From an uncultured Thermoleophilia bacterium (GTDB lineage Bacteria; Actinomycetota; Thermoleophilia; UBA2241): a DNA stretch of 64,000 nucleotides. A program made the position numbers and the translations under genes. The DNA is taken from NCBI GenBank assembly GCA_963715985.1, contig CAVQSP010000011.1, positions 128,001 to 192,000 on the forward strand, given 5' to 3'. This document shows positions 18,046 to 64,000 of this stretch, one piece after another; position 1 is the stretch's first letter, and every line of letters begins with the position of its first letter. The notes under the pieces were generated by a model, which saw only the letters and a program-made list of their open reading frames with translations, was not told the origin of the DNA and made no database searches.

Positions 18046-18070
18046 ACCCTCGAACGTCTGGAGCGCGCAG

Positions 18071-19033: not shown

Positions 19034-19036
19034 CCC

Positions 19037-20386
19037 ATGGCCCTGTCTGGACTCGAGATCTACAAGCTGCTGCCCAAGACCAACTGCAAGGAGTGCGGCT
19101 TCCCCACCTGCCTGGCCTTCGCCATGAAGCTGGCGCAGAAGGGCACCGAGCTGGACAACTGCCCCTACGTGAGCGATGAGGCCAAGACGGCGCTGGACGC
19201 CGCCTCGGCGCCGCCCATCAAGCTCGTCACCATCGGCGCCGGTGAGCGCGCCTTCGAGATCGGCAACGAGGTCGTGCTGTTCCGCCACGAGAAGACCTTC
19301 TACCACCAGCCTGGGCTGGTGGCGCGTGTGGCCTGCGACGACCCGCAGCTCGCGGCGAAGGCGGCGGCGGCTTGCGCCTATGAGGTCGAGCGCGTCGGCA
19401 TGATCCTGCGCCTCGACGGCCTCGCCGTGGAGCACACCGCGGGTGACGCGGCCGCGTACGCCGCGGCGGTGGCCGCGGCCCGCGCAGCCGCCCCCGGCCT
19501 GCCGCTCGTGCTCATGACGTCCGACGCGGCGGCGGCCGACGCGGCCCTCGCGGGCGGCGCCGCCGCGGAGAAGCCGCTCCTGCACGCCGCCACTGCCGCC
19601 AACTGGCAGGCCATGGCCGAGGTCGCCGTGAAGCACGGCGTGCCGCTGGCCATCAACGTGGAGAACGGCGATCTCTCAGGGCTGGCTGAGCTCTCCGCCC
19701 AGGTCACGGGCGCCGGTGTGGAGGACCTCGTCCTCGACCCCGGCACCGGCACTCTGGGCGCGGACCTCGCGGCCTTCACCCAGCTTCGCCGCCTCGCCCT
19801 CAAGAAGGGCGCCCGCGCCCTCGGCTACCCCATCTTCGCCCTCTGCGGCGCGGACACGTGGGAGCTGGAGCTGGCCCGCGCCTCGCAGGCGATCGGCAAG
19901 TACGCCGGCGTCATCGTGCTCGACCACACCGAGCCGTCCGTCTACTACGCGCTCATCACGCTGCGCCAGAACCTGTACACCGACCCGCAGAAGCCCATCC
20001 AGGTGGAGCCCAAGCTCTACGAGATCGGCTCCCCCACCGCCGACAGCCCGATCATGATCACCACGAACTTCTCGCTCACGTACTTCTCCGTGTCCGGCGA
20101 GGCGGAGGGTGCGGGCATGCCGTCGTGGCTGCTCGTCGCCGACAGCGACGGCCAGTCCGTGCTCACCGCCTGGGCGGCCGGCAAGTTCGACGCCGAGAAG
20201 ATCGCCAAGACCGTCAAGGACAGCGGCATCGAGAACATGGTGAACCACCGCAAGCTGGTCATCCCCGGCCACGTGGCCGGCCTCTCCGGCGAGGTGGAGG
20301 AGGAGCTCCCCGGCTGGCAGATCATGGTGGGCCCGCGCGACGCCGTGGACATCCCCAACTACCTCAAGACGGTCTGGAGTGCGTGA
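19037..20386 (+). CDS. acsC: corrinoid Fe-S protein large subunit
   Basis: LPKTNCKECGFPTCLAFA...CP, YTDPQKP, TTNFSLTY, SVLTAWAAGKF. Confidence 0.95.
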   Translation: MALSGLEIYKLLPKTNCKECGFPTCLAFAMKLAQKGTELDNCPYVSDEAKTALDAASAPPIKLVTIGAGERAFEIGNEVVLFRHEKTFYHQPGLVARVACDDPQLAAKAAAACAYEVERVGMILRLDGLAVEHTAGDAAAYAAAVAAARAAAPGLPLVLMTSDAAAADAALAGGAAAEKPLLHAATAANWQAMAEVAVKHGVPLAINVENGDLSGLAELSAQVTGAGVEDLVLDPGTGTLGADLAAFTQLRRLALKKGARALGYPIFALCGADTWELELARASQAIGKYAGVIVLDHTEPSVYYALITLRQNLYTDPQKPIQVEPKLYEIGSPTADSPIMITTNFSLTYFSVSGEAEGAGMPSWLLVADSDGQSVLTAWAAGKFDAEKIAKTVKDSGIENMVNHRKLVIPGHVAGLSGEVEEELPGWQIMVGPRDAVDIPNYLKTVWSA

Positions 20387-20448
20387 GATCAGGTGAGCGT
20401 GTGTCTGTCTGAAGCAGCACCAGTCGTGACCGGCGCCGAAGGGCAGCG

Positions 20449-22428
20449 ATGAACGAGGCGCCGGTCACGACCAGCCGTACGGCCATGGCCACCATCACCT
20501 TCACGCCCTCGGGCGAGACGGTGGAGGTGCCGGCCGGCACCAGCCTGCTCGACGCGGCCATCCTCTGCGAGCTGGACGTCCCGGCGCCGTGCGCCGGGCA
20601 GGGCCGCTGCGGCCGCTGCCGCGTGCGCGTGCTCAGCGGCGACGTGGAGCGGCGCAGCAACGCCGGCCTCGAGACGGCCGAGATCCTGGACGGCTGGGCC
20701 GTGGCCTGCCAGACGTACGCCAGGGGCTCGGCCGAGGTGGAGGTGCCCGACCGGCGCAAGGAGAAGGTGCGCCCGCACGGGCACGCCGTGGCCGAGCCCG
20801 AGTCGCTGCCGCTCAGCTGCGACTGGCGGCAGAACCCGGCGGTGCGGACCTTCGAGCTCGAGATCGACCCGCCCACGCTCGACGACCAGACCAGCGACTT
20901 CGACCGCCTGCGTCGGGCGCTGTCGCAGCAGTACGGTCTGGAGGAGATCCGCGCCGAGCTGCCCATGCTGCGCAGACTCGGCAAGGACCTGCGCATGTCC
21001 AACTGGAAGATCAGTGTCACGCTCGAGATGCGCGACTGGGTGTACGGCACGTACCTGCCGCCGCGCCTCATCCGCATCTACCCGGGCGCCTTCAAGCACC
21101 AGAGCATGGGGCTCGCCATCGACCTCGGCACCACCTCGGTGGTCGTGTACCTGCTCGACTTCGGCAGCGGCCGCGTGGTCGACTCGGCGAGCGCCTACAA
21201 CAAGCAGATCTCCTGCGGCGAGGACGTCATCAGCCGGATCATCTACGCCAAGCGCAAGCGCGGGCTGGACCGCCTGCAACACCTCGCCGTGGAGACCATC
21301 AACGAGCTGCTCTCCGAGTTGCAGACGCGCAACGGCATCGAGCTCTACGAGATCCACGAGATCGCCGTGGCCGGCAACACCACCATGATCCACCTGCTGC
21401 TGGGCCTGGACCCGCGCTTCCTGCGCGAGGAGCCGTACATCCCCACCATCGCCTCGGCGCCCAAGCTGGTGGCGGGCGAGCTGGGGCTCAACGCCAACAT
21501 GCTCGCCCGCGTGCACGTGCTGCCGTCGGTGGGCAGCTACGTGGGCGGCGACATCACCGCCGGGGTCATCTCCTCCGGCATGTACGCCACCGACAAGCTC
21601 ACCCTGTTCATCGACATCGGCACCAACGGCGAGATGGTGCTGGGCAACCAGGACTGGCTGCTCTCGTGCGCCTGCTCCGCCGGGCCCGCCTTCGAGGGTG
21701 GCGGCGTCGTCCACGGCATGCGCGCCACCGCGGGCGCCATCGAAGACGTCTTCGTCGACGACGCCACGTGGGAGCCCTCCTTCAGGACGGTGGACGACGC
21801 CCCGGCCGTGGGCATCTGCGGCAGCGGCCTCATCGACCTCCTCGGCGAGCTCTTCGTCACCGGCCTGCTCGACAAGTCGGGGCACTTCGACCTGGAAGCG
21901 GCCACGGCCCGCGTACGCGTGCGCGACGGCGTGCCCGAGTACGTGGTGTGCCGCGCCGGTGAGGGTGGGGCCGCCAAGGACATCTGCCTCACCGAGTCGG
22001 ACGTCACCGGTCTGCTGCGCGCCAAGGCGGCCATCTACGCCGGCTACATGGTGCTGTGCCGCAGCGTCGGCGTAGAGCTGGGCGATGTGGAGCAGTTCCT
22101 CATCGGCGGCGCCTTCGGCCAGTACCTCAACGTGGAGAAGGCCATCCGCATCGGGCTGCTGCCGGACCTGCCGGTCGAGCGCTTCCACTTCCTCGGCAAC
22201 ACCAGCGCCCAGGGCGCCTACTCGGCCCTCCTGTGCGTCAACATGCGGCACGACGTGCAAGACGTGGCCGCCAAGATGACCTACCTGGAACTGAGCGCCG
22301 ACAACAGCTTCATGGACGAGTACACGTCGGCGCTCTTCCTCCCGCACACCGACCTGAGCGTGTTCCCGACCGTGCAGGCTTCGCTCGCCAAGCGCACCAC
22401 CGGTACGGCGCCGCAGGACAGCCCCTGA
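20449..22428 (+). CDS. acsV: ATP-dependent corrinoid reductive activator (ASKHA, RACo/RamA family)
   Basis: N-terminal 2Fe-2S CAGQGRCGRC...C; DLGTT, DIGTNGE, CSAGPAFEG, GICGSG. Confidence 0.9.
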   Translation: MNEAPVTTSRTAMATITFTPSGETVEVPAGTSLLDAAILCELDVPAPCAGQGRCGRCRVRVLSGDVERRSNAGLETAEILDGWAVACQTYARGSAEVEVPDRRKEKVRPHGHAVAEPESLPLSCDWRQNPAVRTFELEIDPPTLDDQTSDFDRLRRALSQQYGLEEIRAELPMLRRLGKDLRMSNWKISVTLEMRDWVYGTYLPPRLIRIYPGAFKHQSMGLAIDLGTTSVVVYLLDFGSGRVVDSASAYNKQISCGEDVISRIIYAKRKRGLDRLQHLAVETINELLSELQTRNGIELYEIHEIAVAGNTTMIHLLLGLDPRFLREEPYIPTIASAPKLVAGELGLNANMLARVHVLPSVGSYVGGDITAGVISSGMYATDKLTLFIDIGTNGEMVLGNQDWLLSCACSAGPAFEGGGVVHGMRATAGAIEDVFVDDATWEPSFRTVDDAPAVGICGSGLIDLLGELFVTGLLDKSGHFDLEAATARVRVRDGVPEYVVCRAGEGGAAKDICLTESDVTGLLRAKAAIYAGYMVLCRSVGVELGDVEQFLIGGAFGQYLNVEKAIRIGLLPDLPVERFHFLGNTSAQGAYSALLCVNMRHDVQDVAAKMTYLELSADNSFMDEYTSALFLPHTDLSVFPTVQASLAKRTTGTAPQDSP

Positions 22429-22444
22429 GACGGAGGCCCGCTGA

Positions 22445-23220
22445 ATGACCACCACCATCGCCGTCGCCGGCAAGGGAGGGACGGGCAAGACCACGCTGGC
22501 CGGTCTGCTCATCCGCCGGCTGGCGGAGGACAAGACCGGCCCCATCCTGGCCATCGACGCCGACCCGGCCAGCAACCTCAACACCGTGCTCGGCCTGCCG
22601 CTCGAGAAGACGGTGGGCGACGTGCGCGAGGAGACCGGCGAGAAGGCGCGCGCCAACCTGCTCGAGGCCGGCATCGCCAAACGCGACCTCCTCGACTACG
22701 AGATCAACGCCAGCGTCGTCGAGGGCGTGGGCGTCGACCTGATCGCCATGGGCCGCCCGGAAGGTCCGGGCTGCTACTGCGCCGCCAACAGCATGCTGCG
22801 CGGCATCATCGACGCCATCGCCGACAGCTACCCTATGGTCGTGATCGACAACGAGGCGGGCCTGGAGCACCTCTCGCGGCGCACCACGCGCGACGTGGAC
22901 GTGCTGTTCATCGTCAGCGACGCCACCGTACGCGGCCTCACCACCGCCGGCCGCATCGCCGCGCTCATCACGCGAGCTGGACACCAAGGTCGGCAAGCAC
23001 TACCTCATCGTCAACCGCGCCGCGGATGGTCTGACGCCCGAGCTCCGCGCGGCCATCGACGAGCACGGCCTGGACCTTCTGGCCGTGCTCCCCGACGACC
23101 CGCAGGTGGCGGCGCTCGACGCCGCCGGCCGCGCGATCGTCGACCTGCCCGGGCGACAGCGCCATGGCTACCGCCATGGGGCCCGTCGTCGACACCGTGC
23201 TCGCCCAGTCGAAGAAGTAG
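22445..23220 (+). CDS. cooC: CooC/AcsF nickel-insertion ATPase; frameshifts near 22970 and 23150
   Basis: GKGGTGKTT, DADP, GPGCYC, DNEAGLEHLSR; continues in shifted frames to TAG at 23220. Confidence 0.88.
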
Positions 23221-23229
23221 GAGGAACCG

Positions 23230-24150
23230 TTGCTCATCATCGGTGAGAACATCCAGATCCTCTCGCCGCCCATCAAGGCGGCCATCGAAGCCCGCGACAA
23301 GGGCCCGATCCAGGACCTGGCGGTCAAGCAGGTCGAGGCGGGCGCCGGCATCGTCGACCTGAACATCGGGCCGCAGAAGAAGCACGGTCACGAGATCATG
23401 CCGTGGATCGTGGAGGCGGTGCAGGAGGTCGTGGACGTCCCGCTCTCGCTGGACACGACCAACTTCGCGGCCATGGAGGCGGGGCTGCAGGTGTGCAAGA
23501 AGCCGGCCATGCTGAACTCGGCGTCGGCCGACCCGGACCGCCTGGACAGCGTGATGCAGCTCGCCGCCAAGTACAACGCGCGCGTCATCGCCCTCACCAT
23601 GGGCGTGGACGGCATCCCCACCACCGCCGACGGGCGCGCCGGCATCGCCATGGAGGCGCTGCTGCCGTCCGCCGAGGCCGCCGGCCTGCCGGTGCAGGAC
23701 GTCTTCCTCGACCCCCTGGTGCTCACGGTGACCTGCAACCAGGACGTGGCCAGGGAGTCGGTCGAGGCCATCCGCATGTTCAAGATGATGGCCGACCCGG
23801 CGCCCACCACGGTGGTCGGCCTCAGCAACGTCAGCAACGGCTGCCCGCCCGAGACGCGTCCGCTCATCAACCGCACCATGCTGGTGATGCTGATGGGTGC
23901 GGGTCTGGACAGCGCCATCGCCGACCCGCTGGACGCCACGCAGAACGCCTGGATCCGTGTGATCGAGGAGCGCGACGACAGCACTCCCCTGGGCAAGCTC
24001 ATCGTGGCCATGTACGACGCCACCGCCGCCATGGAGGATCTCGACCCCGACCTGGTCGACAAGAGCGATCCCGAGCAGGTCGACGTGTACAAGACCTACC
24101 GGATGCTGTGTAACGACGTCATCTACGCGGACTCGTACCTGCGCATCTGA
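23230..24150 (+). CDS. acsE: methyltetrahydrofolate:corrinoid Fe-S protein methyltransferase
   Basis: IIGENI, LSLDTTN, DPLV, GLSNVSNG, LINR...GLDSAIADP pterin-binding motifs; cluster context. Confidence 0.9.
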   Translation: MLIIGENIQILSPPIKAAIEARDKGPIQDLAVKQVEAGAGIVDLNIGPQKKHGHEIMPWIVEAVQEVVDVPLSLDTTNFAAMEAGLQVCKKPAMLNSASADPDRLDSVMQLAAKYNARVIALTMGVDGIPTTADGRAGIAMEALLPSAEAAGLPVQDVFLDPLVLTVTCNQDVARESVEAIRMFKMMADPAPTTVVGLSNVSNGCPPETRPLINRTMLVMLMGAGLDSAIADPLDATQNAWIRVIEERDDSTPLGKLIVAMYDATAAMEDLDPDLVDKSDPEQVDVYKTYRMLCNDVIYADSYLRI

Positions 24151-51458: not shown

Positions 51459-51551
51459 GGAGAGGTGTCCGAGTTGGCTTAAGGAGCGCGACTGGAAATC
51501 GCGTGGGCGGGGTTACCTGCCTCGTGGGTTCGAATCCCACCCTCTCCGCCA
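51459..51551 (+). tRNA. tRNA-Ser(GGA)
   Basis: CGCGA-CT-GGA-AA-TCGCG anticodon arm, long variable arm, CCA. Confidence 0.97.
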
Positions 51552-51595
51552 TTTCCCCCTCCACGGGGGAGCCGGCGACCCTGAGACCCCCTCGC

Positions 51596-51690
<95 letters not shown>

Positions 51691-52275: not shown

Positions 52276-53337
52276 CTAGGCAGGTAGACGGTCTTGCCCC
52301 TCCTCCAATGAGTCGGAGGGGAGGGCCGGCGCCTGTTCGGCAGGGGCTTCCCCATCAGGGGTACGCCTCCGCCGCAGCCACGAGACCAGGTCTTCCAGGG
52401 CGCCGACGAAACCCTGCGGCATTAGCTCGATTGACACCGCAATCATGATGCCGAGCACGATCATCCTGTACTCCTCGAGGGCGTTCAGGTACTGGTTCAC
52501 GAACGTGAACAACAGTGCGCCGACAACCGCCCCCGGATACCGAGCAAGTCCACCCACGAAGAGCATCACCATCAGCAGAATGAAGAAGTCGAGCCCAAGG
52601 GTCTTCTGAGATATGCCACCCACGTAGTGGACATAGAAGGCGCCCGCCAAGCCCGTGAAGAACGCGGAGAGTGCAAACACCATGAGCTTCACCGCGTTCT
52701 CATTCACGCCGAGGCTCTTGACCAGCGCGTCAGCATCTCGGAGGGCTGTCATAGCCAAGCCCAGCCGTGAGTCCATGATGCGGAAGTAGATCGCGTACAC
52801 ACTTATGGCAGCCAGGCCCAAGGCGGCGTAGAACCAGACAGTCGGATCCAACGGGCTGAAGTGGTAGTCCCCGATGCTGAGCCCCGGGACGCCAAAGAGG
52901 CCCGCGGAACCACCCGTGCCGATCCGGTCTCCAAAGAGAATGAACGTCGGCAGGAGCAAGACCAAGGCATACGTGACCAGCGCGACGTACGCTCCCCGAA
53001 TCCTGAGACACGGGAGTCCGATCGCTACGCCGACACCGGCGGCAATGGCCGCGCCCATCAGCATGGTCAGCCACGGCGACAGCCCGAGCTGCAGAGACAT
53101 CATTGCAGAGCCGTAGGCGCCAACGACGAAGAAGGCCACTTGGCCGAAACTGAAGATGCCGGCGTATCCCGTGATCAAGTCCCAGCCAGCCACCACAACG
53201 ATGTAGATGAACGCGAGCACGAACGTGCCCAGTGTGTAGGGGTCACGGGTGACGAGCGGCACAACCGCAAGCGCAGCGAGTCCGAGGATGCTGATGCCGC
53301 TTCGTGAACGCCATCCAGTCAGGAGACGCGATTTCAT
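52276..53337 (-). CDS. LivM-like ABC permease
   Basis: GYAGIFSFGQVAFF..GAY, LRIRGAY, GLAGAFY, GG...G. Confidence 0.9.
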   Translation of the reverse strand: MKSRLLTGWRSRSGISILGLAALAVVPLVTRDPYTLGTFVLAFIYIVVVAGWDLITGYAGIFSFGQVAFFVVGAYGSAMMSLQLGLSPWLTMLMGAAIAAGVGVAIGLPCLRIRGAYVALVTYALVLLLPTFILFGDRIGTGGSAGLFGVPGLSIGDYHFSPLDPTVWFYAALGLAAISVYAIYFRIMDSRLGLAMTALRDADALVKSLGVNENAVKLMVFALSAFFTGLAGAFYVHYVGGISQKTLGLDFFILLMVMLFVGGLARYPGAVVGALLFTFVNQYLNALEEYRMIVLGIMIAVSIELMPQGFVGALEDLVSWLRRRRTPDGEAPAEQAPALPSDSLEEGQDRLPA

Positions 53338-53379
53338 CCTTCCACTCCCACAGCTCCGCCAATCATCCGAAGCCTCACG

Positions 53380-54249
53380 TCAAGCCCATCTGCCAAGAAG
53401 CCCTTGCGGTCTCACAAGAAGCACGACGATGAGGGTGGCGAACCAAAAAGACATCGTGTAACTGGCCCCCAGCCTCCAGGTGATCAGCGCCTCACCGATT
53501 CCTAGGATGAAGGCTGCGAGTACCGCTCCCTTGACGCTCTCGAGCCCCCCCAGCACGACGATCACAAATGCCCTGAAGAAGGGGTCCCAGCCGCTGCTGG
53601 GTGAGATGAGGTAGACGGGGGCCAACAGGATGCCGGCAACTCCCGCAAGGACGGTCGAGATACCGAAGGCCAAGCCGAATATCCTGTTCAAGGGAATGCC
53701 GACGATCTGCGCCCCGATCATGTCCTGCGCGACCGCCCGCATTGCACGTCCCGACCAGGTCGAAGTCAGGTATGCCTCCAGAAGGACCATAGTGACGATT
53801 GCGCCGACCAGCATGGCCAGCGACTGATAGCCAATGACGAAACCGCCAACGCTGATCTGCCCAGTAAAGACCGGAGGCAGGGTCTTAACCAGGGGGCCGA
53901 AGACCAGCATAGCGAGGCTGTCGAGAGCCACGGCCAGCCCAAGGGTGACAATCATCGTCGTGATCTGCCATTGTGGGCGCCAGCGCAGCGGCCTTACGAG
54001 ACCACGCTCGAGCAGCATCCCTGCGACGAAAAGTACCGGCACGCTGAGGATGAACACGAGCGGGTACGGGAGTCCAAGCGCCCCGGCCGATAGCACCCAG
54101 GCGAGGTAGGCTCCCCACGTGAAGAACACGCCGTAGGAGAAGTTGAAGACGCGGGACACCCCGTAGACTAGCGCCAGCCCGATGGCGTTCACCGCGTACA
54201 CCGCCCCCAGGCCCACACCGCTGATGAGAACCTCAACTAGCTGACGCAC
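53380..54249 (-). CDS. LivH-like ABC permease
   Basis: GLALVYGVSRVFNFSYG, GRAMRAVAQD, VVLGG; GTG at 54249. Confidence 0.9.
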   Translation of the reverse strand: MRQLVEVLISGVGLGAVYAVNAIGLALVYGVSRVFNFSYGVFFTWGAYLAWVLSAGALGLPYPLVFILSVPVLFVAGMLLERGLVRPLRWRPQWQITTMIVTLGLAVALDSLAMLVFGPLVKTLPPVFTGQISVGGFVIGYQSLAMLVGAIVTMVLLEAYLTSTWSGRAMRAVAQDMIGAQIVGIPLNRIFGLAFGISTVLAGVAGILLAPVYLISPSSGWDPFFRAFVIVVLGGLESVKGAVLAAFILGIGEALITWRLGASYTMSFWFATLIVVLLVRPQGLLGRWA

Positions 54250-54286
54250 TCCGTCCCACCATCCTTCTTCAATGACGAAGGCACAT

Positions 54287-54991
54287 TCACGTTCCGAGGA
54301 GCGTGCTCCTGACCCGCTGGTCTTCCAAGGCGAGACAGGCGTCACAGGAGAGGACTATCTCGCCTTCTTCCAGCAGGTAGACGCGGCCCGCCACCTCACA
54401 AGTCTTGGCCACGTTCTGCTCGACAAGCAGGACACCGATGCCCTGGGCGTTGATTGAGGCCAGAGCCGCGAAGATCTGCGAGATCAGCTTGGGGGCCAGG
54501 CCAAGGGACGGCTCGTCCACCGCAAGGAACCGTGCATCAGACATGATGCTGCGCCCGAGCGCCAGCATTTGAGCCTCGCCCCCGGAAAGCGTCCGTGCCA
54601 ACTGCTTCTGGCGCTCTTCCAGCCTGGGGAACAGCTCGAAGACGAGCACGAGATTCGTCGAAACGTTCTTGCGCGCCTTTCGCGTGAAGGCGCCCAGACG
54701 CAGGTTGTCCAGAACGGTCATCTCCGAGAACAGATTCCGCTGCTCTGGGACGTACACGAGGCCCATCTCGACGATGCGCTGGACGGGGAGGTCAGTCACG
54801 TCCATGCCATCGAACAGGACTCGTCCAGCCTTGGCGCGTTGAAGGCCACAGACAGTGCGCAGGAGGGTGCTCTTGCCGTGACCGTTCGGGCCGAGCAATG
54901 CGACGAATTCACCTTGGCCGACCTCGAGATCCACCCCTCGGAGGACCCTGTAGTCGCCGTAGCGCTGCTCCACGTGCTGGACCTCAAGCAT
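54287..54991 (-). CDS. LivF-like ABC ATPase
   Basis: GPNGHGKST, LSGGE, DEPSLGLAP, VEQN. Confidence 0.92.
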   Translation of the reverse strand: MLEVQHVEQRYGDYRVLRGVDLEVGQGEFVALLGPNGHGKSTLLRTVCGLQRAKAGRVLFDGMDVTDLPVQRIVEMGLVYVPEQRNLFSEMTVLDNLRLGAFTRKARKNVSTNLVLVFELFPRLEERQKQLARTLSGGEAQMLALGRSIMSDARFLAVDEPSLGLAPKLISQIFAALASINAQGIGVLLVEQNVAKTCEVAGRVYLLEEGEIVLSCDACLALEDQRVRSTLLGT

Positions 54992-55739
54992 ATGCTTCCG
55001 TCCCCAAGTAGAGATCCACCACCTGCGGATCTGCCAAGACGCTCTCCGGAGGACCCTCGGTTATGGATTGGCCTTGCTCGAGAATCAGCAATCGATCCGA
55101 GAGCTCTGCTAGCCTCCTCACGTGGTGCTCGATGACCACGAAGGTGATCCCGAGCTGCAATCTCAAGCGAGTAATGAGACTCCCCAATCCGGCGGCTTCC
55201 GAGGGCGCGAGCCCCCCCATGGGCTCGTCCAGCAGGATGAGGGACGGCCCGGTCGACAGGGCTGCGGCTAGAGCCGTCAGCTTCTGTTCGTACAGATTGA
55301 GGTGTTGGGTGGCCACGCATCGCCGCGCGACAATCCCGACCAGATCCATCGCGTCCGCGACGACGTCCGCGGTCTTGCCCCCCCGGTCTCCCCTGCCGAA
55401 CAAGGCCCCGATCTCGACGTTCTCTTCCACCGTCTTGGACGCGCACAGTATGGTCACCTGGAATGTGCGCGCGAGCCCCTTCCTGCAGATCTGATGAGGC
55501 TTGAGGCCGGCGATACTCTCCTCGCGAAAGACGCGCCGGCCCTTGGCGGACAGCTGTCCGCCTATCGCATTGAAGAGGGTGGACTTGCCGGCCCCGTTGG
55601 GGCCGGCAATTCCGAACACCTCTCCCGGCCATACGCTGAAGCTCACGTCATTGAGAGCGACTATTTCGTTGAAGCGGCGGGTGACATGCTCAACGCGGAG
55701 CAGAGGATGCCCGTCCTTTCTGTCTGGAACGCTAGCCAC
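54984..55739 (-). CDS. LivG-like ABC ATPase
   Basis: GPNGAGKST, ARTFQ, LLDEP, IEH, YLG. Confidence 0.92.
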   Translation of the reverse strand: MASVPDRKDGHPLLRVEHVTRRFNEIVALNDVSFSVWPGEVFGIAGPNGAGKSTLFNAIGGQLSAKGRRVFREESIAGLKPHQICRKGLARTFQVTILCASKTVEENVEIGALFGRGDRGGKTADVVADAMDLVGIVARRCVATQHLNLYEQKLTALAAALSTGPSLILLDEPMGGLAPSEAAGLGSLITRLRLQLGITFVVIEHHVRRLAELSDRLLILEQGQSITEGPPESVLADPQVVDLYLGTEAYA

Positions 55740-55772
55740 CGGAGTCGTCTCTGACGAGTGCCAAACTGGGTC

Positions 55773-57041
55773 CTATTGCTTGATCCACGAGGTTTCAATC
55801 CAGGGCGGCATCTGAAACTCGCCAGCCTCTTCAGTGCCGAGGAAGATGAGGACGGGCTCGCCGTTCTGGATTTGGTAGAAGTGCATCGGCAGTGTGTCGT
55901 TCCCTTCAGGCACGTAGTTGCCTTCGACGAACGTGTATGTTCCGTTCACCCCCACGTAGTTAAGCGTCTTGATGGTGTCGCAGATTGCCTCGTAGTCGTC
56001 CGGATCGCCGACGGAATTGGCCGCCGCTGCCCACAACATCAGCCCGTCGTAGCAGGTACCCAATATGCTGAGGCCCGGCGGCTCGCCGTACTTGTCTTCA
56101 AAGCGCTGTACGAAGTCATCGTTCTCGGGAATCGGCAAGATGCTGTTAGTCGCGTCTCCGAGGGCTCCGATGCCTGCTTCACCCACGATGTCCGCAAACT
56201 CGGGAATGGACAGGCCGTAGCCGAGCTCAACGATCGATTGTGTGGGCTGCTGTCTAAACTGCTCCATGAAGGTCTTGAGATCCGGCGCTGCCATAACGCT
56301 CACGTTGATCACTGCTGGGTTGATGTCGCGAATCTTCGCAAGCACAGATCCCCATTCACGAGTCCCGTAGGGGAACTTCTGGAACAGCGCTACCTCCCAG
56401 CCTGCCGCCTTTGCGGCCTCCGCTATACCCTCCCCTACTCCGGTGTCCCATTCGAAGTCGGCAGCCAGAATCGCGATCTTGTTATTGGGGAAGTCGAGAC
56501 CGATGCGATTGACGATGAGGTCGAACGTGAGCTCTCCGTATGGTTTCTCCACGTCCCCGAGCATGAAGATGTTCTTGTAGCCGGCCTCCTTGACCATGTC
56601 GACTGTCAGCTGTGATCCATCGAAGTGCAGGTACGGTTGTGGGTACTTGCCGAAAGCCGGAATATCTGGTCCCATACCCCCGTAGCCCGTGACGTTGACG
56701 CTGACCCGATCCTTTCCGTTGAGTTTCTGAGCTGCTGCTACCAGGATCTCGGCCGATTCGTCTTTGATATCGTAGATGTCAAGCTCGAGCTGACGCCCGG
56801 CCACGCCGCCGGCCGCGTTGATGTCTGCTACCGCCATCTCCAGTCCCCGCTGCATGGTTTCGCCGTCGGCCGCATAGGGCCCGGTCAGCGGCAACGGAGC
56901 CCCGACGAGAATCGGCGTCGCGTTCTCTGATGACCCTTCAGACGACGCTGACTCCGTGCTGTCGGAGCCGCAGCCGCCGGCTACGAGCAGCGCTCCGAAA
57001 AGAGCTGCAAGAAGCACCGTGCCTGCCAATCGTAGTCTCAT
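55773..57041 (-). CDS. Liv-type ABC substrate-binding lipoprotein
   Basis: AGGC lipobox, VGAPLPLTGPYAADG, INAAGGVAGR. Confidence 0.9.
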   Translation of the reverse strand: MRLRLAGTVLLAALFGALLVAGGCGSDSTESASSEGSSENATPILVGAPLPLTGPYAADGETMQRGLEMAVADINAAGGVAGRQLELDIYDIKDESAEILVAAAQKLNGKDRVSVNVTGYGGMGPDIPAFGKYPQPYLHFDGSQLTVDMVKEAGYKNIFMLGDVEKPYGELTFDLIVNRIGLDFPNNKIAILAADFEWDTGVGEGIAEAAKAAGWEVALFQKFPYGTREWGSVLAKIRDINPAVINVSVMAAPDLKTFMEQFRQQPTQSIVELGYGLSIPEFADIVGEAGIGALGDATNSILPIPENDDFVQRFEDKYGEPPGLSILGTCYDGLMLWAAAANSVGDPDDYEAICDTIKTLNYVGVNGTYTFVEGNYVPEGNDTLPMHFYQIQNGEPVLIFLGTEEAGEFQMPPWIETSWIKQ

Positions 57042-57055
57042 AGCTACCCCCCCAG

Positions 57056-58465
57056 TCAGGCGAACCGTAGGCCGACCTTCTCGAGATTCTCCTTCCGGCG
57101 CTCCCAGAGCCGGACGTACTCATCGGTTGGCGCCAGCTCCGGCAACTCGTAGCAGTCCATGAAGCTCATGCCGAGCGGCGCCTGGCCGGCGGCGATGGGC
57201 TTCTCGTAGCGATTGAGAAGCTGCACCACCATGGCGTTGGCCTCTTCGAGGCCTATGCCTGCGGCCGCCTCGCTGATCTCGCGCAGAATCCGCGCCTCCA
57301 TGCCCGTCACGTGGTCGACTGTCTTCATCTTCGCGCCGCAGGCACCGTACAAGGCGGTCACGCCAGCAGCCGTCTGCGCGATGGCCTGAGCCGCAATCTC
57401 GTCGCAGATCATCTCGGTGCACGGCCCGGCCGCAGGGCCCACGTACATGTCCACCAGGACGGGGACGCCGGCGGCCCTCAGGGCGAGGATGCAGGTGGTC
57501 GCGAACCAGAGCGTCTGGCGATCGGTCGTGGTGCCGCTGTAGAGGCTCTGTGGGTACCAGACGAAGTTGGCCGGGTCGCAGACCACGAAACCGGCGATGG
57601 CTTCTGCCACTCCAGTGATCGCCGTGCCCTCGGCGCCACCGCTGTAGCCACCGAAAAGCGGACAGGAGCACGCCTCGACGATGTTCCCGAGGTACTTGTT
57701 GTGCATGACCTTGCTGATCAAGTCATAGTCCATCTTGAGTTCATTGAGGAAGACGACGAGGTGAGGGTCGCTGGGCCGCAGCCCGCCCGGAAAATCGCCG
57801 GCATCCTGCGCCTCACTTGTGACGCCGGACATGATGCCGACGATGCCGAGCCCCGGCTTGCCGGCGTCCTCCGCTGCCTGCCGAGTCCACAGCGCCTCCT
57901 TCTTGCAGGCGAGGATCTCGATGGGCGTGTGCGCCTTGGTGGGCACACCCAGGATGTCCTGCAGAGCGCCAGTGTGGAGACCATCGACCTCCTCCTGCGC
58001 GACGCTCGTCATGATCGGGAGGAAGTACTCCTCACTCTGCGGACAGCCATTCGGCCCCCCCTTGACCAGGGGCCGGCGAGCATCGCCGATATCTCTCGCC
58101 ACGGCCTCGACGGTTTCAGCACCGGCGCCGAAGAGGTGCGTTGAGGGGGCGCGCCTCAACGCGCTCTCGATCTCGTCACGGGTGATCGAGATGGTCGTTT
58201 CCGTGCTGATGTTGTAGAGGCCCACGCTGGCCAGTAGCTCCACGGCCGCCTCAAACACACGCTTGGCCATCTGCAGGTCCTGCAGGACGACCTCATCTGG
58301 GTCGAAGCGGATCTGGTACTCCTCTTTGAGCTCACGGAGTCTCGCCGGAAGGATCCTGCTGTCGAACTCCTTCTCCGGCACGCTCTTCCCGCCTGTTGAC
58401 CTCAGGTAGAAGTCGGCGACGTTGTCAATATGGTCGTACGAGGATTTCTCGACGTCGATAGCCAC
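57056..58465 (-). CDS. MtmB-family (monomethylamine-type) corrinoid methyltransferase, pyrrolysine-free
   Basis: GGPNG.P, AGKPGLG, LNELK, P.FGGY.GG, AGPCTEM, TGMEAR, F.DCY match MtmB as I recall it; no internal TAG; start placed at the GTG 8 nt after AGGAGG. Confidence 0.88.
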   Translation of the reverse strand: MAIDVEKSSYDHIDNVADFYLRSTGGKSVPEKEFDSRILPARLRELKEEYQIRFDPDEVVLQDLQMAKRVFEAAVELLASVGLYNISTETTISITRDEIESALRRAPSTHLFGAGAETVEAVARDIGDARRPLVKGGPNGCPQSEEYFLPIMTSVAQEEVDGLHTGALQDILGVPTKAHTPIEILACKKEALWTRQAAEDAGKPGLGIVGIMSGVTSEAQDAGDFPGGLRPSDPHLVVFLNELKMDYDLISKVMHNKYLGNIVEACSCPLFGGYSGGAEGTAITGVAEAIAGFVVCDPANFVWYPQSLYSGTTTDRQTLWFATTCILALRAAGVPVLVDMYVGPAAGPCTEMICDEIAAQAIAQTAAGVTALYGACGAKMKTVDHVTGMEARILREISEAAAGIGLEEANAMVVQLLNRYEKPIAAGQAPLGMSFMDCYELPELAPTDEYVRLWERRKENLEKVGLRFA

Positions 58466-58477
58466 GTTCACAGCCTC

Positions 58478-59149
58478 CTAAGCCTGGAGTGACGAGATGC
58501 CGCGCACTTCCAAGGCCATCGCCTCAGCGAGGCGAGCTGCACCCACCGCGTCCTCCGCCGTCCCGTCGGCCCCGATGTGCGCAGCCCACTCCGCCGTCAC
58601 GGGCGCGCCACCGACGATGACAGCGCAGTGTTCCCTGATGCCCGCCTTCGTCGCCTCATCGATGACATCGCTCATGCCCTGCATGGTGCTGGTCATGAGC
58701 GCCGAGATGCCGATGACATCGGCCTTGACCTCGACTGCCTTCTCGACGAACGCCTTCGCCGGTACATCGCGCCCCAGGTCGTGGACCTCGAAGCCGCTGA
58801 CCTCGAGAAACGAGGCCACGATGGTCTTGCCGATGTCGTGCACGTCGAACTGAATGGTCCCGAGCACGACCACGCCTTTGCGCGGTCTCTCACCCGAATC
58901 CGAGTTCTTCAACGCCGGCCCCACGACATCGACGGCCGCCTTCATAGCGTCCGCCGAGAGGATCATCTCCGGGAGGAAGAGCTCCATCCGTTCGAAGCGG
59001 TCGCCGACCTCCTTCATCCCCGGGGTCAACGCCTTGTCGACGATGTCTGCCGCCGTGATGCCGGCGTCCAGCGCCTCTCGGACAGCTTTGGCCAGGCCCT
59101 GTTCATCTCCATCGATGACGAGGCCGCGCATTCTCTCAAGATCATTCAC
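58478..59149 (-). CDS. methyltransferase cognate corrinoid protein (MtmC/MtbC-like)
   Basis: GM..VG..F...LPE cap domain; DVHDIGK, SALM, VGGAP B12-binding motifs; GTG at 59149. Confidence 0.93.
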   Translation of the reverse strand: MNDLERMRGLVIDGDEQGLAKAVREALDAGITAADIVDKALTPGMKEVGDRFERMELFLPEMILSADAMKAAVDVVGPALKNSDSGERPRKGVVVLGTIQFDVHDIGKTIVASFLEVSGFEVHDLGRDVPAKAFVEKAVEVKADVIGISALMTSTMQGMSDVIDEATKAGIREHCAVIVGGAPVTAEWAAHIGADGTAEDAVGAARLAEAMALEVRGISSLQA

Positions 59150-59363
59150 TCCCCCACCTCCGCTCTCGAGCTGCTCCACCGAGTGCGCCCCACGTGTCGT
59201 AGCGCATCCGTCCGTGAGCCGACCATAGGGACAGTGTCCGCATTGCACCACGACCCAGAGGATGCGGGTGAGCGGGGTATGTGGAGAGAATGACGAGTGT
59301 CGGCCGACGGTCAGGAGGGGGGTCATCGGCCGCCCGAGCGGCAGCCGTCTGGCGGGGGCGTCG

Positions 59364-61064
59364 CTAGCCGGTCGGCGGGGCGGTTCGACTCTTGGGAGAG
59401 ACGATCTGGTACACGACCTCGATCTCCAATGATTCATGACGGCGTCGATACAGCCTGTAGCCAACGAGCAATGCGAACGCGAAACCATAGAGACCGGCAA
59501 CGAGCAGCCACACGTGCATGGGATTGCCGCCGAGAGCGAGCCCGCTGTCCACGGCGAATCGCCAAGCCGAGAACGCGATGAAGGCGACGAACGCGCAGCC
59601 ACAGACGGTGATCAGGGGCACACGCAGAATCTCGTAGGGTGCCGCCGTTGAGTGACGGTACGTTTCTCGACGCGCATAGGGGAGGCAGGCCGCCAGCGCG
59701 CACGTGAGCGCAAAGGCCAACCCATTAAGCAGCGTCTCGGCCATGCTCAGCCGCCAGACATCTGTATAGCAGTACGCAGCAGTCGGCACGAGGCTGAGAA
59801 GGCCAAATGCCAGGACCGCGTGAAGGGGGATGCCGTCGTCACCCGACATCTGGCCGAACCAGCTCGGCAGGCTTCCGTGTCTGGACATCACCATGAGTAC
59901 GCGCGACGCAGCCAGCGGGATGTCGGGCACCCACATCCAGAACATAGCACCGAAGAACGCGAGGAGGCACAGCGCTGCGATACCCGCCGGCCACAGTTCG
60001 CCATCGAAGAACCAGAAGATTGGCAGCGTGGGCAGAGGGAGCGCTGCGGGATCAGTGAGGAACAGGTACGATCCGGCCGCAAGGACGGCGTCTCCAATCC
60101 GCGCTGTCATGAGCCAAACGACACCCGCGGACGCCAGCACGATGATGATCTCCGCACCTAACATCGTGAGTAGTTGGCTCCTGAGCCTCCCCGCATCCCG
60201 CATCTCTCCGACGTGATGGACGCTCCAGGCAGGGTAGATGAGCGGGAATGCAGCCACCGGCAGCAACGCCAGAACCTGACCTACGCCGTGGGGCCCGGCC
60301 ACGAGACGATGGCCATGCTCGCCCGCGGACCGCAGGACCGCAATCGATGTCTGCGAATCGATTATGCCTTTCGCTGGGGCCACGAGAATCATGGCAGAGA
60401 GAATCAACAGCGCAGCGCTGCCGACAGTCCAAAGAAGGCGCTGAAGTCGCACGTAGCTCTTCGGACTGCGGACATTCATGAGCAGCGCCCAAGCGATGAC
60501 GATCAGTGACAGCAGGAGCATCCCCGTGCCCGATTGCACCCAGACCCCAATCGCCTCGAGCCGGGAGGAGCCGACGAGCTGCCCCACGATGACGAACGCC
60601 GGTCCGACGACGACATTGCCGGCCAGCCAACAGGCGATGGCCATCCAGAACGCCCCACCGAATACGATGCACGCGAGGCCGACGACGGAGCCCAATGTGC
60701 TGGAGAACAGGCGGCTTTGGAAGTAGTAGTCACCGCCGCTGTGCGGCATCGAGGAAGCCAGGAACGCGTACACCGTCGCCTGGGCTCCGCAGAACAGCCC
60801 ACCGATGAGGCAAGCGACCGGGAAGCTCCCACCAGCATAGAAGGCGAATGCGGCCAGGAGAGGGATCACCAGCATGATCGCAGGGTTCATCGACATGACG
60901 TTGTACGCGAGGGCGTCGTAGGTTCCCCATGCGCGCAGGACCCGCGGAGCGCGATGGAACGCCACGACAGGCTTGCCAGCTTCGGTGCCGCTGGAGCCCC
61001 ATCTGGTGGCCTCGAACGTCGGCCCCGTTTCGTCTACGGACAGCGTCCCTGGTCTACGTGTCAT
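59364..61064 (-). CDS. APC-family amino acid/amine permease
   Basis: MPHSGGDY..SR, GEMR, SR......G.LP, many hydrophobic helices. Confidence 0.85.
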   Translation of the reverse strand: MTRRPGTLSVDETGPTFEATRWGSSGTEAGKPVVAFHRAPRVLRAWGTYDALAYNVMSMNPAIMLVIPLLAAFAFYAGGSFPVACLIGGLFCGAQATVYAFLASSMPHSGGDYYFQSRLFSSTLGSVVGLACIVFGGAFWMAIACWLAGNVVVGPAFVIVGQLVGSSRLEAIGVWVQSGTGMLLLSLIVIAWALLMNVRSPKSYVRLQRLLWTVGSAALLILSAMILVAPAKGIIDSQTSIAVLRSAGEHGHRLVAGPHGVGQVLALLPVAAFPLIYPAWSVHHVGEMRDAGRLRSQLLTMLGAEIIIVLASAGVVWLMTARIGDAVLAAGSYLFLTDPAALPLPTLPIFWFFDGELWPAGIAALCLLAFFGAMFWMWVPDIPLAASRVLMVMSRHGSLPSWFGQMSGDDGIPLHAVLAFGLLSLVPTAAYCYTDVWRLSMAETLLNGLAFALTCALAACLPYARRETYRHSTAAPYEILRVPLITVCGCAFVAFIAFSAWRFAVDSGLALGGNPMHVWLLVAGLYGFAFALLVGYRLYRRRHESLEIEVVYQIVSPKSRTAPPTG

Positions 61065-61695
61065 CAAGCAGACCCTTGCGCAGCGCCGTGGCTACGGCGT
61101 GTGCGCGATCTGAGACCTCGAGCTTGCGATAGACATTCTCTAGATGGTCCTTGACGGTCGCAATGCTCAGGAACATGAGTTGGGCGATCTGGCGATTGGA
61201 ATGCCCATCCGCAATTAGCCGAAGAATCTCGAGCTCTCGAGAGGTCAGCAGGGTCCTGTCTCGCTGGTGCTCGTCCTCCTTCAGAAACGCCTGGACGACC
61301 ACCTCGTCGAAGCGCTGACCTCCTCGAGCCACACTCCGGATTGCTGAGAGCAGTTCCTCCGGCAACGCACTCTTCAGAACGTAACCATCAGCTCCGCCAC
61401 GCACCGCGCCGAGAACGAGATCATCGTCGCCGTGAGCTGTCAGGACAATGACGTGCGGTGGAGCACGCATCGCTCGAATGTGTGACAGCACCTCGAGCCC
61501 GTTCATCCCCGGCATCTGCAGATCCAAGAGAACGAGATCTGGTGTAGACCGTGTGATCTCCTCCAAGGCATCGGGGCCGTTGCCAGCTGACCCAACCACC
61601 TCGACGTCGGCATAGCCACGGAGAAGCGCCACGAGCCCGTGTCGGACTACGTCGTGGTCTTCTACAACTAGCAGACGAACCACTGGCTCCGCCAT
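61054..61695 (-). CDS. NarL/LuxR response regulator
   Basis: VEDH, LLDLQMPGMNG, GYVLK, LTSRE...TVKDH..NVYRKL. Confidence 0.93.
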   Translation of the reverse strand: MAEPVVRLLVVEDHDVVRHGLVALLRGYADVEVVGSAGNGPDALEEITRSTPDLVLLDLQMPGMNGLEVLSHIRAMRAPPHVIVLTAHGDDDLVLGAVRGGADGYVLKSALPEELLSAIRSVARGGQRFDEVVVQAFLKEDEHQRDRTLLTSRELEILRLIADGHSNRQIAQLMFLSIATVKDHLENVYRKLEVSDRAHAVATALRKGLLDDT

Positions 61696-61715
61696 GCTTC
61701 GGCCTCCCCACGCCC

Positions 61716-63797
61716 TCAGGCGCGCTGCATCGGCACACGGGCAGCCACCACGGTGCCACCGCCGACCCTGGCTCGAAACTCCATGCTGCCTCCAGCGAGA
61801 GCGGCCTGCTCCTCCATCATAGCCAACCCGAAGTGCTGAGAGTCACTCGGTACCGGTAGATCCATGCCGATGCCATCATCCGCCACCGAGAGCACAAGCC
61901 ATGCCGTATCATCACGGGTCTCATTTCGAAGCGAGACCCAAATGTTGCGGGCCGCAGCGTGCCGCAGCGCGTTCACGAGTGCCTGGCGGGCGATCCTGTA
62001 CAGCGCACTGAGTCTCTCCGGTTCGAGATCGGGAACTCCTTCGAGAGTGCAGTCGACGCGAGACGGTCCCTCGTGATCTGCCCGGGCCGCTAGGGCCCTC
62101 AGAGCCGCCCCGAAGCCGAGCTGCTCCAGCTGCGGCGGCCTCAGGTCGGATATGACGACCCGCGCATCGTCGATTGCGCTACGAAGCACGCTCAGAGGAT
62201 GCTCCATGCTCGCCGAAGCCTCCGGACCCAGCGAGCCGCGCAAACCTTCGAGCTCGTAGAGCACGCCAATCACCGACTGCAGAACGTCGTCGTGCAGTAT
62301 GGTAGCTGCCTCCCGACGCTCATGCTCACGCACCCGGGCGATCCGCTCGACCAGGCCCTCAATGCTGGCGCGACTCTCCGTGAGATCCTTGAAGAGCCTC
62401 GCATTGAAGATCGCCACGGCCGCCTGCTCAGCCACATCCTCGGCCAACGCAAGGTCATTCTGAGCAATGTGCCCCGGCGGCTCCGACGTAAAGAGCAGCA
62501 AAGACCCGACCAGTTCGTTCTGCGCGACCATGGGGAGCAGCACCGCTGATTCCATGTAGATCTTCGAGCGGAAGCCGGGGCTGATCTGCGCACTGTAGAT
62601 CAGTTCGTCAATCGCCAGCTCCAGGTATCCGCCGGCCAGTGACTTGACATCCTGGAAGCGAAGACGAAGGCCGACCAGTTCGTCGTCCGGCTCTGAGGAA
62701 GCCACGGCAACGAAGTCTCGGCTGTCCGAATCAAGCTCGAGAAGGAGGCAGCGACTGCCTGCTATCAGCCTCGTGGCGTTACGCGCGATCTGCTTGAACG
62801 TGTGGTCAAGGTCAAGACTCCTGGAGATGGCACGCGAGACTGCATATGCGGTCCCAAGGACTGCACTGCTCTGCTGGCTGCGCGCGGAGAGGTCTTCGAT
62901 GCGTGCAAAGACCCCAAGAAGTCGGGCGGCCGTAAGTAGACTCTGCCGCTGTTCCGTGGACAGACCACCGGGCACGCGCCGACTCATGGTGAGCACCCCG
63001 TTCACCGCGCCAGCCCACGAGGAGGGAACGAGGATGATCTGGCGCGCTCCGCGGCACGAGACGGCTCTCAACGCCTCGTCACCGCCGTTGTCGTATAGCT
63101 CGAGTATGCGATTGCCCTGTACAGGTCGATAGACCTCCCGGAGGAGGTCGATATCGGGGTAGGGAAAGCCTCGTTTCCTCGTCTTCCCGTAGGCCGCAAG
63201 CAGCTCCCCTCGCTGGCGGTCGGGCGTCAGAAAGAACCCGCCGGCTTCCATCCCGATACTTCGCATGATCCATGGCAGGCTGTCAGTTAGTCCTTCGCCC
63301 AGGTCCGAGCGCGCGCCAAGGAGATCCAGGAGCAAGTCCAGCAGTCCCGTACGCTCCTGGAGGGAGATTCTGTCCTGCAGATCCAAGCGACCGACGCTGG
63401 CTGCGGCAGGCTCAAGCACGAGGCGCCACGTTCCATCGTCGAGTGGACTGAGGGCTGCGAGGAGCATCACGCCGACGCCGGCCGGCCCACGCAGCGCGAA
63501 GCTGCCCGAGGAGGCCGCGCCAGCATCCAATGTGCGTGCAAGGAACTGACGCAGTGCGACAGACCAAGTTGCGACCTGATCGGTGATCAATCGATTGGGC
63601 TGGACAGGAGGCAGAGGCGGCACAATGCCTCGCACGGCCCGCACGACGCCGACTCCATCAAGCACGATCTCAAGCCGGCCGGACTTCGCGGAGGTGCTTC
63701 CCTGATCAGGCCGATCCTGGGTCGGGGGGAAGGGACTCTCTGACTCAGGGCTCACGGCACAGCCCCACCTGTGGGAATCGCAGTGAAACGCTTCCAA
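61716..63797 (-). CDS. cytoplasmic GAF-domain sensor histidine kinase (HisKA_3 type; start uncertain)
   Basis: Two GAF-like regions, ERR...LHDDVLQ, NALRHA, DDGIG, FGL..M. Confidence 0.88.
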   Translation of the reverse strand: MEAFHCDSHRWGCAVSPESESPFPPTQDRPDQGSTSAKSGRLEIVLDGVGVVRAVRGIVPPLPPVQPNRLITDQVATWSVALRQFLARTLDAGAASSGSFALRGPAGVGVMLLAALSPLDDGTWRLVLEPAAASVGRLDLQDRISLQERTGLLDLLLDLLGARSDLGEGLTDSLPWIMRSIGMEAGGFFLTPDRQRGELLAAYGKTRKRGFPYPDIDLLREVYRPVQGNRILELYDNGGDEALRAVSCRGARQIILVPSSWAGAVNGVLTMSRRVPGGLSTEQRQSLLTAARLLGVFARIEDLSARSQQSSAVLGTAYAVSRAISRSLDLDHTFKQIARNATRLIAGSRCLLLELDSDSRDFVAVASSEPDDELVGLRLRFQDVKSLAGGYLELAIDELIYSAQISPGFRSKIYMESAVLLPMVAQNELVGSLLLFTSEPPGHIAQNDLALAEDVAEQAAVAIFNARLFKDLTESRASIEGLVERIARVREHERREAATILHDDVLQSVIGVLYELEGLRGSLGPEASASMEHPLSVLRSAIDDARVVISDLRPPQLEQLGFGAALRALAARADHEGPSRVDCTLEGVPDLEPERLSALYRIARQALVNALRHAAARNIWVSLRNETRDDTAWLVLSVADDGIGMDLPVPSDSQHFGLAMMEEQAALAGGSMEFRARVGGGTVVAARVPMQRA

Positions 63798-64000
63798 TTG
63801 CGCAGCTACTCATCGCCGTCCTCAGGGAGACGCCGCACGTAGCGGCTCGAGTCCTGGTCGCAGGCGCCGGCACCACTTATGAGGACGGGCGGAATACCCC
63901 GCCAATCCTAGGCTCACCGTGCGGTCTCTGGGTGGCCGGCGCGCAAGGAGGATCCTGCCGCCCTTCCTCAGGATTGCCGCCGAAACGACGGTCACCGGCT

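Follow-up and report, generated by a model that had tools for sequence, protein, structure and literature searches.

A pyrrolysine-free, probably MtqB-like MtmB homologue in a methyltransferase operon of a Thermoleophilia bacterium

The stretch of 64,000 nucleotides analysed here as a whole (the window; contig CAVQSP010000011.1 of an uncultured Thermoleophilia bacterium) harbors a gene, here named mtxB, which encodes a member of the methyltransferase family MtmB without pyrrolysine (Pyl). The gene product is probably, with a rough probability of 0.6, an MtqB-like, Pyl-independent N-methyl amine:corrinoid methyltransferase with a donor of the choline or tetramethylammonium type. This assignment is derived from the sequence of the protein, its predicted fold, its position in the family tree and the genes found next to it. 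A function was first assigned to non-Pyl MtmB homologues in 2026, via the archaeal enzyme MtqB, and mtxB is a useful addition to the MtqB-like group rather than a case of new chemistry.

Reading frame, pocket and predicted fold of the mtxB product

Two GTG codons come into question as the start of mtxB. The second of them, GTG 58465, yields a protein of 469 amino acids and appears likelier than GTG 58471, since AGGAGG is located 8 nt upstream and the resulting length agrees with that of the database copy of the protein (P0002, also 469 amino acids). An earlier note on this DNA, made from the sequence alone, had let the gene end at the same position. Residue numbers given below refer to the 471-amino-acid open reading frame (ORF); for the 469-amino-acid protein, two have to be subtracted. 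The product matches the Pfam family MtmB (PF05369) from end to end (profile positions 3-450 of 450; 378.5 bits at a gathering cut-off of 25, E 5.8e-113) and has no internal stop, in line with the full-length MtmB-like ORF without in-frame TAG described in that note. With MtmB of Methanosarcina barkeri (1L2Q/1NTH), it is aligned by HMMER at an E-value of 1e-82. Compared to its two nearest orthologues from metagenomes (L088 and L087; 360-411 codons), the ratio of nonsynonymous to synonymous substitution rates (dN/dS) of mtxB is approximately 0.09-0.11, and the gene is thus under purifying selection and not decaying.

The HMMER alignment pairs the M. barkeri motif AGRPGMGV-X-GPETS with AGKPGLGI-V-GIMSG (Pyl202 to V211, E205 to M214), DSHEVS with DPHLVV (E229 to L238) and MDEQMP with EACSCP (E259 to C268, M261 to C270), the chain residue numbers being obtained by counting along the printed alignment. 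The replacement of Pyl and three glutamates by Val, Met, Leu and Cys, which the earlier note had proposed, was thereby reproduced, and the valine codon (GTC) was found on the minus strand at the place given there (57839-57841). The mtxB product consequently lacks what characterizes a Pyl-dependent MtmB: the gene carries GTC instead of UAG, and Met, Leu and Cys stand in place of Glu205, Glu229 and Glu259, all three of which are invariant in five aligned TAG-containing MtmBs including the two of the host itself. In the work of Hao et al. from 2002 and 2004, the three glutamates of MtmB are said to touch the pyrroline ring. Terms for the roles of Glu205, Glu229 and Glu259 were absent from PMC9842639.

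An AlphaFold2 model of the mtxB product (predicted local distance difference test 89, predicted template modelling (TM) score 0.91) was compared to 1NTH with Foldseek, which gave TM scores of 0.91/0.94 and a root-mean-square deviation of 1.9 Å over 459 columns at 34% identity. The predicted fold is a triosephosphate isomerase (TIM) barrel superposable on solved MtmB; the acidic residues of MtmB are not retained in the mtxB product. According to DSSP, V211, L238 and C268 of the model are located on three consecutive barrel strands (210-211, 237-240 and 265-269). The residues W305/Y306/Y310, M214, C268 and C270 are present in the protein, and its Met and Cys residues align with those of proteins of the type of L062, a member of the archaeal group described below. 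According to these comparisons, the mtxB product is a Pyl-free homologue of MtmB that is intact and under selection, and its pocket has been remodelled and is no longer acidic. To this extent the interpretation in the earlier note stands; its proposal of new chemistry is not supported, that of a metal site formed by the C-S-C motif is not supported at the level of the clade, and the premise that no substrate is assigned to non-Pyl MtmB is outdated.

Bacterial clade and its archaeal sister group

A word-indexed search with the mtxB product returned 59 proteins, 45 of them full-length at 47-82% identity, and an exhaustive search against cluster representatives returned 745 family members at an E-value of 0.001 or better. 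The trees calculated with FastTree (142 rows) and IQ-TREE (52 rows) give the same placement, namely in a subclade of four to five rows within a bacterial clade, which has a support of 97 in FastTree (52 rows) and an SH-aLRT value (Shimodaira-Hasegawa-like approximate likelihood ratio test) of 99 in IQ-TREE (24 rows) and comprises at least 80 sequences. This non-Pyl clade lies apart from the TAG-containing MtmBs, which form a separate clade with a support of 100, the two of the host included. Its sister group consists of six non-Pyl proteins (support 94 in FastTree, SH-aLRT 88 in IQ-TREE); four of these rows are from Methanosarcinaceae-family genomes and two are others (P0065, P0068).

In 81 sequences of the bacterial clade (not de-duplicated), pocket position 211, the Pyl site, is Leu in 61, Val in 8, Glu in 7 and Thr in 4; Met is found 80 times at position 214 and Leu 77 times at position 238. 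Position 268 is Cys in 51, Asn in 20 and Ala in 8, and position 270 is Cys in 9. Judged from these alignments, the replacements at the Pyl site and the glutamate positions are hallmarks of the bacterial clade. In the archaeal sister group, V, Q or I is found at the Pyl site; four of the six rows have C-M-C(-P), one has C-M-A and one C-M-S.

According to passages of PMC13044021 (2026), the enzyme MtqB (ACT9XH_RS04775) from Methanococcoides methylutens Q3c, which is homologous to MtmB but lacks Pyl, methylates cob(I)alamin with choline (42 nmol/min/mg), tetramethylammonium (37) and, weakly, monomethylamine (11). The statement of the earlier note that non-Pyl MtmB has no assigned substrate is therefore outdated. 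The same passages describe an MtqB branch with one bacterial and one archaeal half, a corrinoid gene directly upstream of the enzyme gene (MtqC/MtqB) and a location downstream of the Pyl operon; the docked quaternary amine is ringed by Met, Cys and aromatic residues, and no metal is described in them. The archaeal sister clade is probably MtqB, because L081 has an MtbC-like corrinoid gene immediately upstream, as in MtqC/MtqB, because the type occurs, among the matches listed, in 5 of 81 genomes of the family, because its members are mutually 73-80% identical, and because the other non-Pyl type of the same genome has no corrinoid neighbor. The two published halves of the MtqB branch, as far as they are described in these passages, would fit the two sister clades. 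Passages of PMC5748143 and PMC6498239 give neither the sequence nor the gene identity of MtqB. Since V211 and C-x-C are common to the mtxB product and the probable MtqBs, the pocket of the former appears to come closest to MtqB of all bacterial subclades. The nearest probable characterized relatives thus share the substitutions for which new chemistry had been proposed, and the usual corrinoid partner gene is kept as well.

The second non-Pyl MtmB type (L067, L068 and L169) is long-branched, 29-34% identical to the mtxB product and common among Methanosarcinaceae-family genomes, and adjoins Pyl mtmB in some of them. No corrinoid gene was found within 4 kb of it in genome G011.

Operon, related loci and host genome

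The operon is encoded on the minus strand in the order GAF kinase, LuxR-type regulator, APC permease, mtxC, mtxB, LivK-type binding protein, two ATPases and two permeases (Table 1).

Table 1. Features of the window discussed in the text
Feature	Position	Strand	Evidence or remark
GAF-domain histidine kinase	61716..63797	minus	HisKA_3 + HATPase_c
LuxR/NarL-type response regulator	61054..61695	minus	Pfam Response_reg + GerE
APC-superfamily permease	59364..61067	minus	Pfam AA_permease_2, E 2e-13
mtxC, cognate corrinoid protein, ~223 aa	58478..59149	minus	GTG 59149, preceded by GGAGGTG
mtxB, Pyl-free MtmB-family methyltransferase	57056..58471	minus	471-aa ORF from GTG 58471, stop-free
GTC codon of Val211, equivalent of Pyl202 in M. 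barkeri MtmB	57841..57839	minus	HMMER alignment
LivK-type (Peripla_BP_6) substrate-binding protein	55773..57041	minus	14 nt past mtxB stop
ATP-binding cassette (ABC) ATPases, LivK-type importer	54984-55739; 54287-54991	minus	Pfam
BPD_transp_2 permeases, LivK-type importer	53380-54345; 52276-53337	minus	Pfam
Two tRNA-Ser genes (GGA, CGA), left island edge	51459..51687	plus	ARAGORN
AcsB	15759-17426		Wood-Ljungdahl acs cluster 15759-24150
Two corrinoid iron-sulfur protein subunits	18071-20386		acs cluster
RACo activase	20449-22428		acs cluster
AcsE-like pterin-binding methyltransferase	23230-24150		acs cluster

The mtxC product contains the Pfam domains B12-binding_2 and B12-binding with the DxHxxG motif in the form D-V-H-D-I-G, and scores 212.6 bits with the NCBIfam model pyl_corrinoid and 209 bits with the MtbC-like one, both under cut-off. 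A longer mechanical ORF for mtxC (374 amino acids, extending to 59602) was rejected; the first approximately 140 residues of this ORF are rich in Ser, Arg and Pro, contain no domain, overlap the permease gene and are apparently not coding. The stop codon of mtxC lies 6-12 nt ahead of the start of mtxB, and mtxB is translationally coupled to mtxC. The mtxC stop is a TAG in frame with the mtxB GTG 58471, with two codons between them (58469-58480); its read-through in a pyrrolysine-decoding cell would fuse MtxC and MtxB, an in-frame arrangement that is expected by chance in one of three cases. In the related loci L001 and L003, the two frames do not match at this junction, and no fused form was found among proteins of 826-2355 amino acids, the 59 near-length matches all having 302-478.

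The APC permease may import the methyl donor. A paralogue with 37% identity is encoded approximately 3.3 kb from the Pyl-mtmB cluster of the host (C14:677275-678795) and another one at C4:103082-104614, which suggests a methylamine-permease-like family. The closest solved relative of the LivK-type protein is 3H5L, which is only labelled as a putative ABC transporter for branched-chain amino acids, and in ESM Atlas both the APC permease and the LivK-type protein retrieved generic names only.

For comparison, 32 loci of the bacterial clade were searched by tblastn with the operon proteins of the window. In 22 of them, i.e. in 22 of the 25 with upstream DNA, mtxC is located directly upstream of mtxB; three roomy loci gave no match and seven have no upstream DNA. 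The gene adjoining mtxB belongs to a LivK-type protein with ABC system in 13 loci from several phyla (37-48% identity of the LivK-type orthologues), to an APC permease in four (L002, L088, L090 and L108; 26-29% identity) and to a CutC-like glycyl radical enzyme in four; nothing was detected beside mtxB in the other 11 loci, most of which lie on short contigs. The glycyl radical enzyme follows mtxC-mtxB directly in a Thermoleophilia metagenome-assembled genome (L001:4735-7197) and on the metagenome contigs L091, L092 and L093. It is, as far as the models tell, related to CutC without being CutC, because its score with the CutC model is 729 bits, short of the cut-off of 1050, although its best solved relatives are CutC enzymes. 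Longer loci encode an aldehyde:ferredoxin oxidoreductase (L090 and L103), an Fe-alcohol dehydrogenase (L103) and extra MttB-family proteins (L097 and L103). The pocket motif tracks the neighboring gene: A-N-I-G-G-P accompanies either the radical enzyme or an APC permease, both A-C-C-x-P-M and A-C-M-G-G-P accompany the ABC system, and A-C-S-C-P is found beside the APC permease in L088 and beside both importers in the locus of the window. Among the loci examined, the C-S-C subclade is the only one in which APC permease and LivK-type importer are combined. By analogy, the neighbors of the relatives suggest a methylated C2 amino alcohol that might lose its methyl groups one by one before being cleaved to an aldehyde, a context which fits donors of the choline type.

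The operon appears to be part of an island. After the tRNA-Ser pair, the GC content drops from approximately 0.72-0.76 to approximately 0.60-0.63 and returns to at least 0.70 near position 64000; the block of 12 kb starts right after the pair, and the individual operon genes have GC contents of 0.59-0.65 compared to approximately 0.70. No mtxB orthologue was found in 40 related genomes, 24 of which belong to the same genus; the best remaining match in them is a Pyl-MtmB with 36% identity. Because of the lower GC content, the tRNA-Ser edge and the lack of an orthologue in these genomes, the whole 12-kb operon looks horizontally acquired, which is the simplest reading of its sequence features. 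Five of ten island genes (52276-63797) end with TAG, compared to 19% of 1416 confident long ORFs genome-wide (binomial estimate, p ~0.03); this excess fits a foreign origin. The flanking direct repeats of the island were only tRNA-like fragments in inconsistent order, so that no att site is claimed.

The host genome (4.35 Mb on 22 contigs, all with 69-71% GC; completeness 88.8%, contamination 7.3%) encodes tRNA-Pyl (C13:555126-555198), PylS (C13:559328-560053) and also tRNA-Sec. The RpoB of the host is most similar to records labelled Actinobacteria (95%) and Thermoleophilia (87-90%). Two mtmB genes with one TAG each (C14:682146-683495 and C14:690446-691795) reach 664 and 662 bits with the family model, and TAG-containing mtmB is found in five further genomes of the same genus and one of the same class. 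The Thermoleophilia host thus appears, from its genes, to decode pyrrolysine; a literature search pairing pyrrolysine with Thermoleophilia returned no report. Two neighboring pieces (C14:620367-621708; profile positions 5-157 and 158-450) make up another MtmB-like gene, which may be a frameshifted paralogue. Apart from that, 29 corrinoid-protein matches and 89 MttB-family matches were obtained, 13 of the latter with one in-frame TAG; five MttB-family matches have one in-frame TGA. A second RACo and several MtaA-like genes are located elsewhere in the genome. Because of the acs cluster, the Pyl machinery and the many corrinoid and MttB-family matches, the host is, judged by gene content, an anaerobe that specializes in methyl groups and possesses a Wood-Ljungdahl pathway.

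Candidate methyl donors and comparison with known systems

In the proposed route, the donor would most likely be a quaternary or tertiary amine of the choline, tetramethylammonium or methylated-ethanolamine type that already carries a positive charge and is taken up via the APC permease, the LivK-type ABC system or both. It would be held in a hydrophobic, sulfur-containing TIM-barrel pocket, in which Val, Met, Leu and Cys replace Pyl and the three carboxylates; a cationic N-methyl donor should need no pyrrolysine adduct. The steps after substrate binding are suggested by the protein families involved: the methyl group would be taken by Co(I) of the MtbC-like corrinoid partner, a methylcorrinoid methyltransferase and a RACo/RamA-type activase from elsewhere in the genome would pass it on and keep the cobalt reduced, and it might finally enter the Wood-Ljungdahl pathway, the acs cluster of which is encoded in the same window.

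Several points weigh against an MtqB-like enzyme for choline-type amines. Choline and betaine are usually transported by BCCT and OpuA systems, which are not the types present here, and the usual ligands of LivK-type binding proteins are amino acids, urea and amides. The LivK-type protein of the operon has only weak matches to the NCBIfam models LivK and UrtA, and in the island itself neither a methylcorrinoid methyltransferase nor an activase was found. The identity of the mtxB product to the archaeal sister clade is as low as 36-41%, the sister grouping has only moderate support (88 and 94), and the archaeal clade is equated with MtqB by inference from its context; in G011, moreover, the archaeal-clade gene lies approximately 2 Mb from PylS, unlike the published position of MtqB. 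Since the pocket motif varies by subclade with the type of neighboring gene, the context of the subclades linked to glycyl radical enzymes or aldehyde oxidoreductases may also not transfer to the C-S-C subclade.

A new substrate is possible for the bacterial clade. The mtxB product could be the same kind of corrinoid methyltransferase with a donor of another class, for instance an amino acid methylated at nitrogen, a small amide or urea with an N-methyl group, or another zwitterion recognized by the LivK-type protein. This alternative is rather unlikely. In its favor, a LivK-type protein with ABC system flanks mtxB both here and in 13 of the 32 loci, the closest solved binding proteins are named for amino acids or urea, and the pocket motifs vary between the subclades in a way that suggests more than one specificity; according to passages of PMC13044021, MtqB too is promiscuous and accepts choline, tetramethylammonium and, weakly, monomethylamine. 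It is opposed by the MtqB-like pocket of the mtxB product (V211 and C-x-C), by L088, the nearest relative with downstream DNA, which has only an APC permease there, and by the neighbors in related loci, which suggest an aldehyde-forming C2 metabolism. Likewise rather unlikely is the idea that the C-S-C subclade demethylates a compound not yet known as a corrinoid methyl donor with direct involvement of the cysteine pair, and that the bacterial G-I-M-S-G clade as a whole comprises several specificities, each motif with its own transporter or partner enzyme.

A metal held by the C-S-C pair and another ligand, which would activate a neutral O- or S-methyl donor as in zinc-dependent methanol and methylthiol methyltransferases, is improbable. 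In the model the two cysteines are placed on or just past the barrel strand at the Glu259 position, and C-x-C recurs in four of six rows of the probable MtqB group; however, the pair is not clade-wide (C270 in 9 and C268 in 51 of 81 sequences), so that a conserved metal site, as suggested in the earlier note and assessed here by conservation only, is not supported at the level of the clade, and a third conserved ligand was not identified. In addition, MtqB acts on quaternary amines, with sulfur and aromatic residues at the docked amine and no metal mentioned in the passages of PMC13044021, and an already cationic amine should need no Lewis acid. Metal binding in the C-S-C subclade alone is possible. 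The low monomethylamine activity of MtqB reported in these passages (11 versus 37-42 nmol per min per mg) and the APC permease paralogue near the Pyl-mtmB cluster could be taken as hints at a pyrrolysine-free monomethylamine methyltransferase. Such a role in this cell is very unlikely, because the genome keeps two TAG-containing MtmBs together with tRNA-Pyl and PylS, and all three acidic residues invariant in Pyl-MtmB are lost in the mtxB product. Least of all is an inactive, decaying paralogue to be expected, even though the catalytic pyrrolysine is absent and a split MtmB-like gene exists elsewhere in the host: the frame is intact, dN/dS is low over 360-411 codons, the pocket residues are near-invariant across the clade, mtxB is tightly coupled to mtxC and transporter genes, and the AlphaFold2 model is confident.

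With the mtxC-mtxB pair, two candidate importers and a dedicated sensor on one transferable island, the operon offers a clean bacterial test case, and as the host also has true pyrrolysine enzymes, it allows both forms to be compared within the same cell. Because the ligand of the LivK-type binding protein can be screened, its conserved pairing with mtxB provides a direct route to the substrate. Judging from the CutC-like radical enzymes and aldehyde oxidoreductases encoded at sister loci, anaerobic bacteria may process choline-type amines by a route in which the formation of trimethylamine is bypassed or altered. Should the substrate turn out to be just choline or tetramethylammonium, the mtxB product would be an ordinary bacterial extension of MtqB; a new donor of the C-S-C subclade, if true, would add a new substrate to the methylotrophy of anaerobic bacteria in sediments.

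Among the known systems, the zinc-dependent methanol methyltransferase MtaB is also a TIM barrel that methylates a corrinoid protein, with Cys ligands holding the metal, whereas the cysteines of the mtxB product are not conserved across its clade. MtaB was not among the matches listed in the sequence and fold searches with the mtxB product, none of which was aimed at MtaB. Type 1 mlp gene clusters were considered as well and dropped, as MtmB is not mentioned in PMC10418091. M. barkeri MtmB (1L2Q, 1NTH) belongs to the same Pfam family over its full length, has the same TIM barrel and likewise a corrinoid-protein partner; the gene order in the Pyl-mtmB loci of the host is B then C, in contrast to C then B in the mtxB locus. 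In the non-Pyl enzymes of the MttB superfamily (MtgB, MtpB, MtcB, MtyB and others), the loss of Pyl accompanies an already charged quaternary amine donor, according to passages of PMC13044021. They would share the lack of Pyl, the quaternary amine donor and the corrinoid acceptor with the proposed mtxB product, but belong to another family (PF06253), and the fold matches to MttB and MtgB reach TM scores of only 0.46-0.57 at 12-14% identity. The closest resemblance is to MtqB, with L062 standing in for it as its probable orthologue: L062 and the mtxB product both carry Val at the Pyl site as well as G-I-M-S, D-x-H-L and C-x-C, and at the Glu259 site A-C-S-C-P of the mtxB product corresponds to G-C-M-C-P of L062. 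The genes of MtqB and of the mtxB product are each immediately preceded by an MtbC-like corrinoid gene, in the gene order also seen in L081 and described for MtqC/MtqB in the passages cited. The mtxB operon differs in the additional APC permease and LivK-type ABC importer, and as its host is a bacterium, the downstream methyl acceptor would have to be other than coenzyme M.

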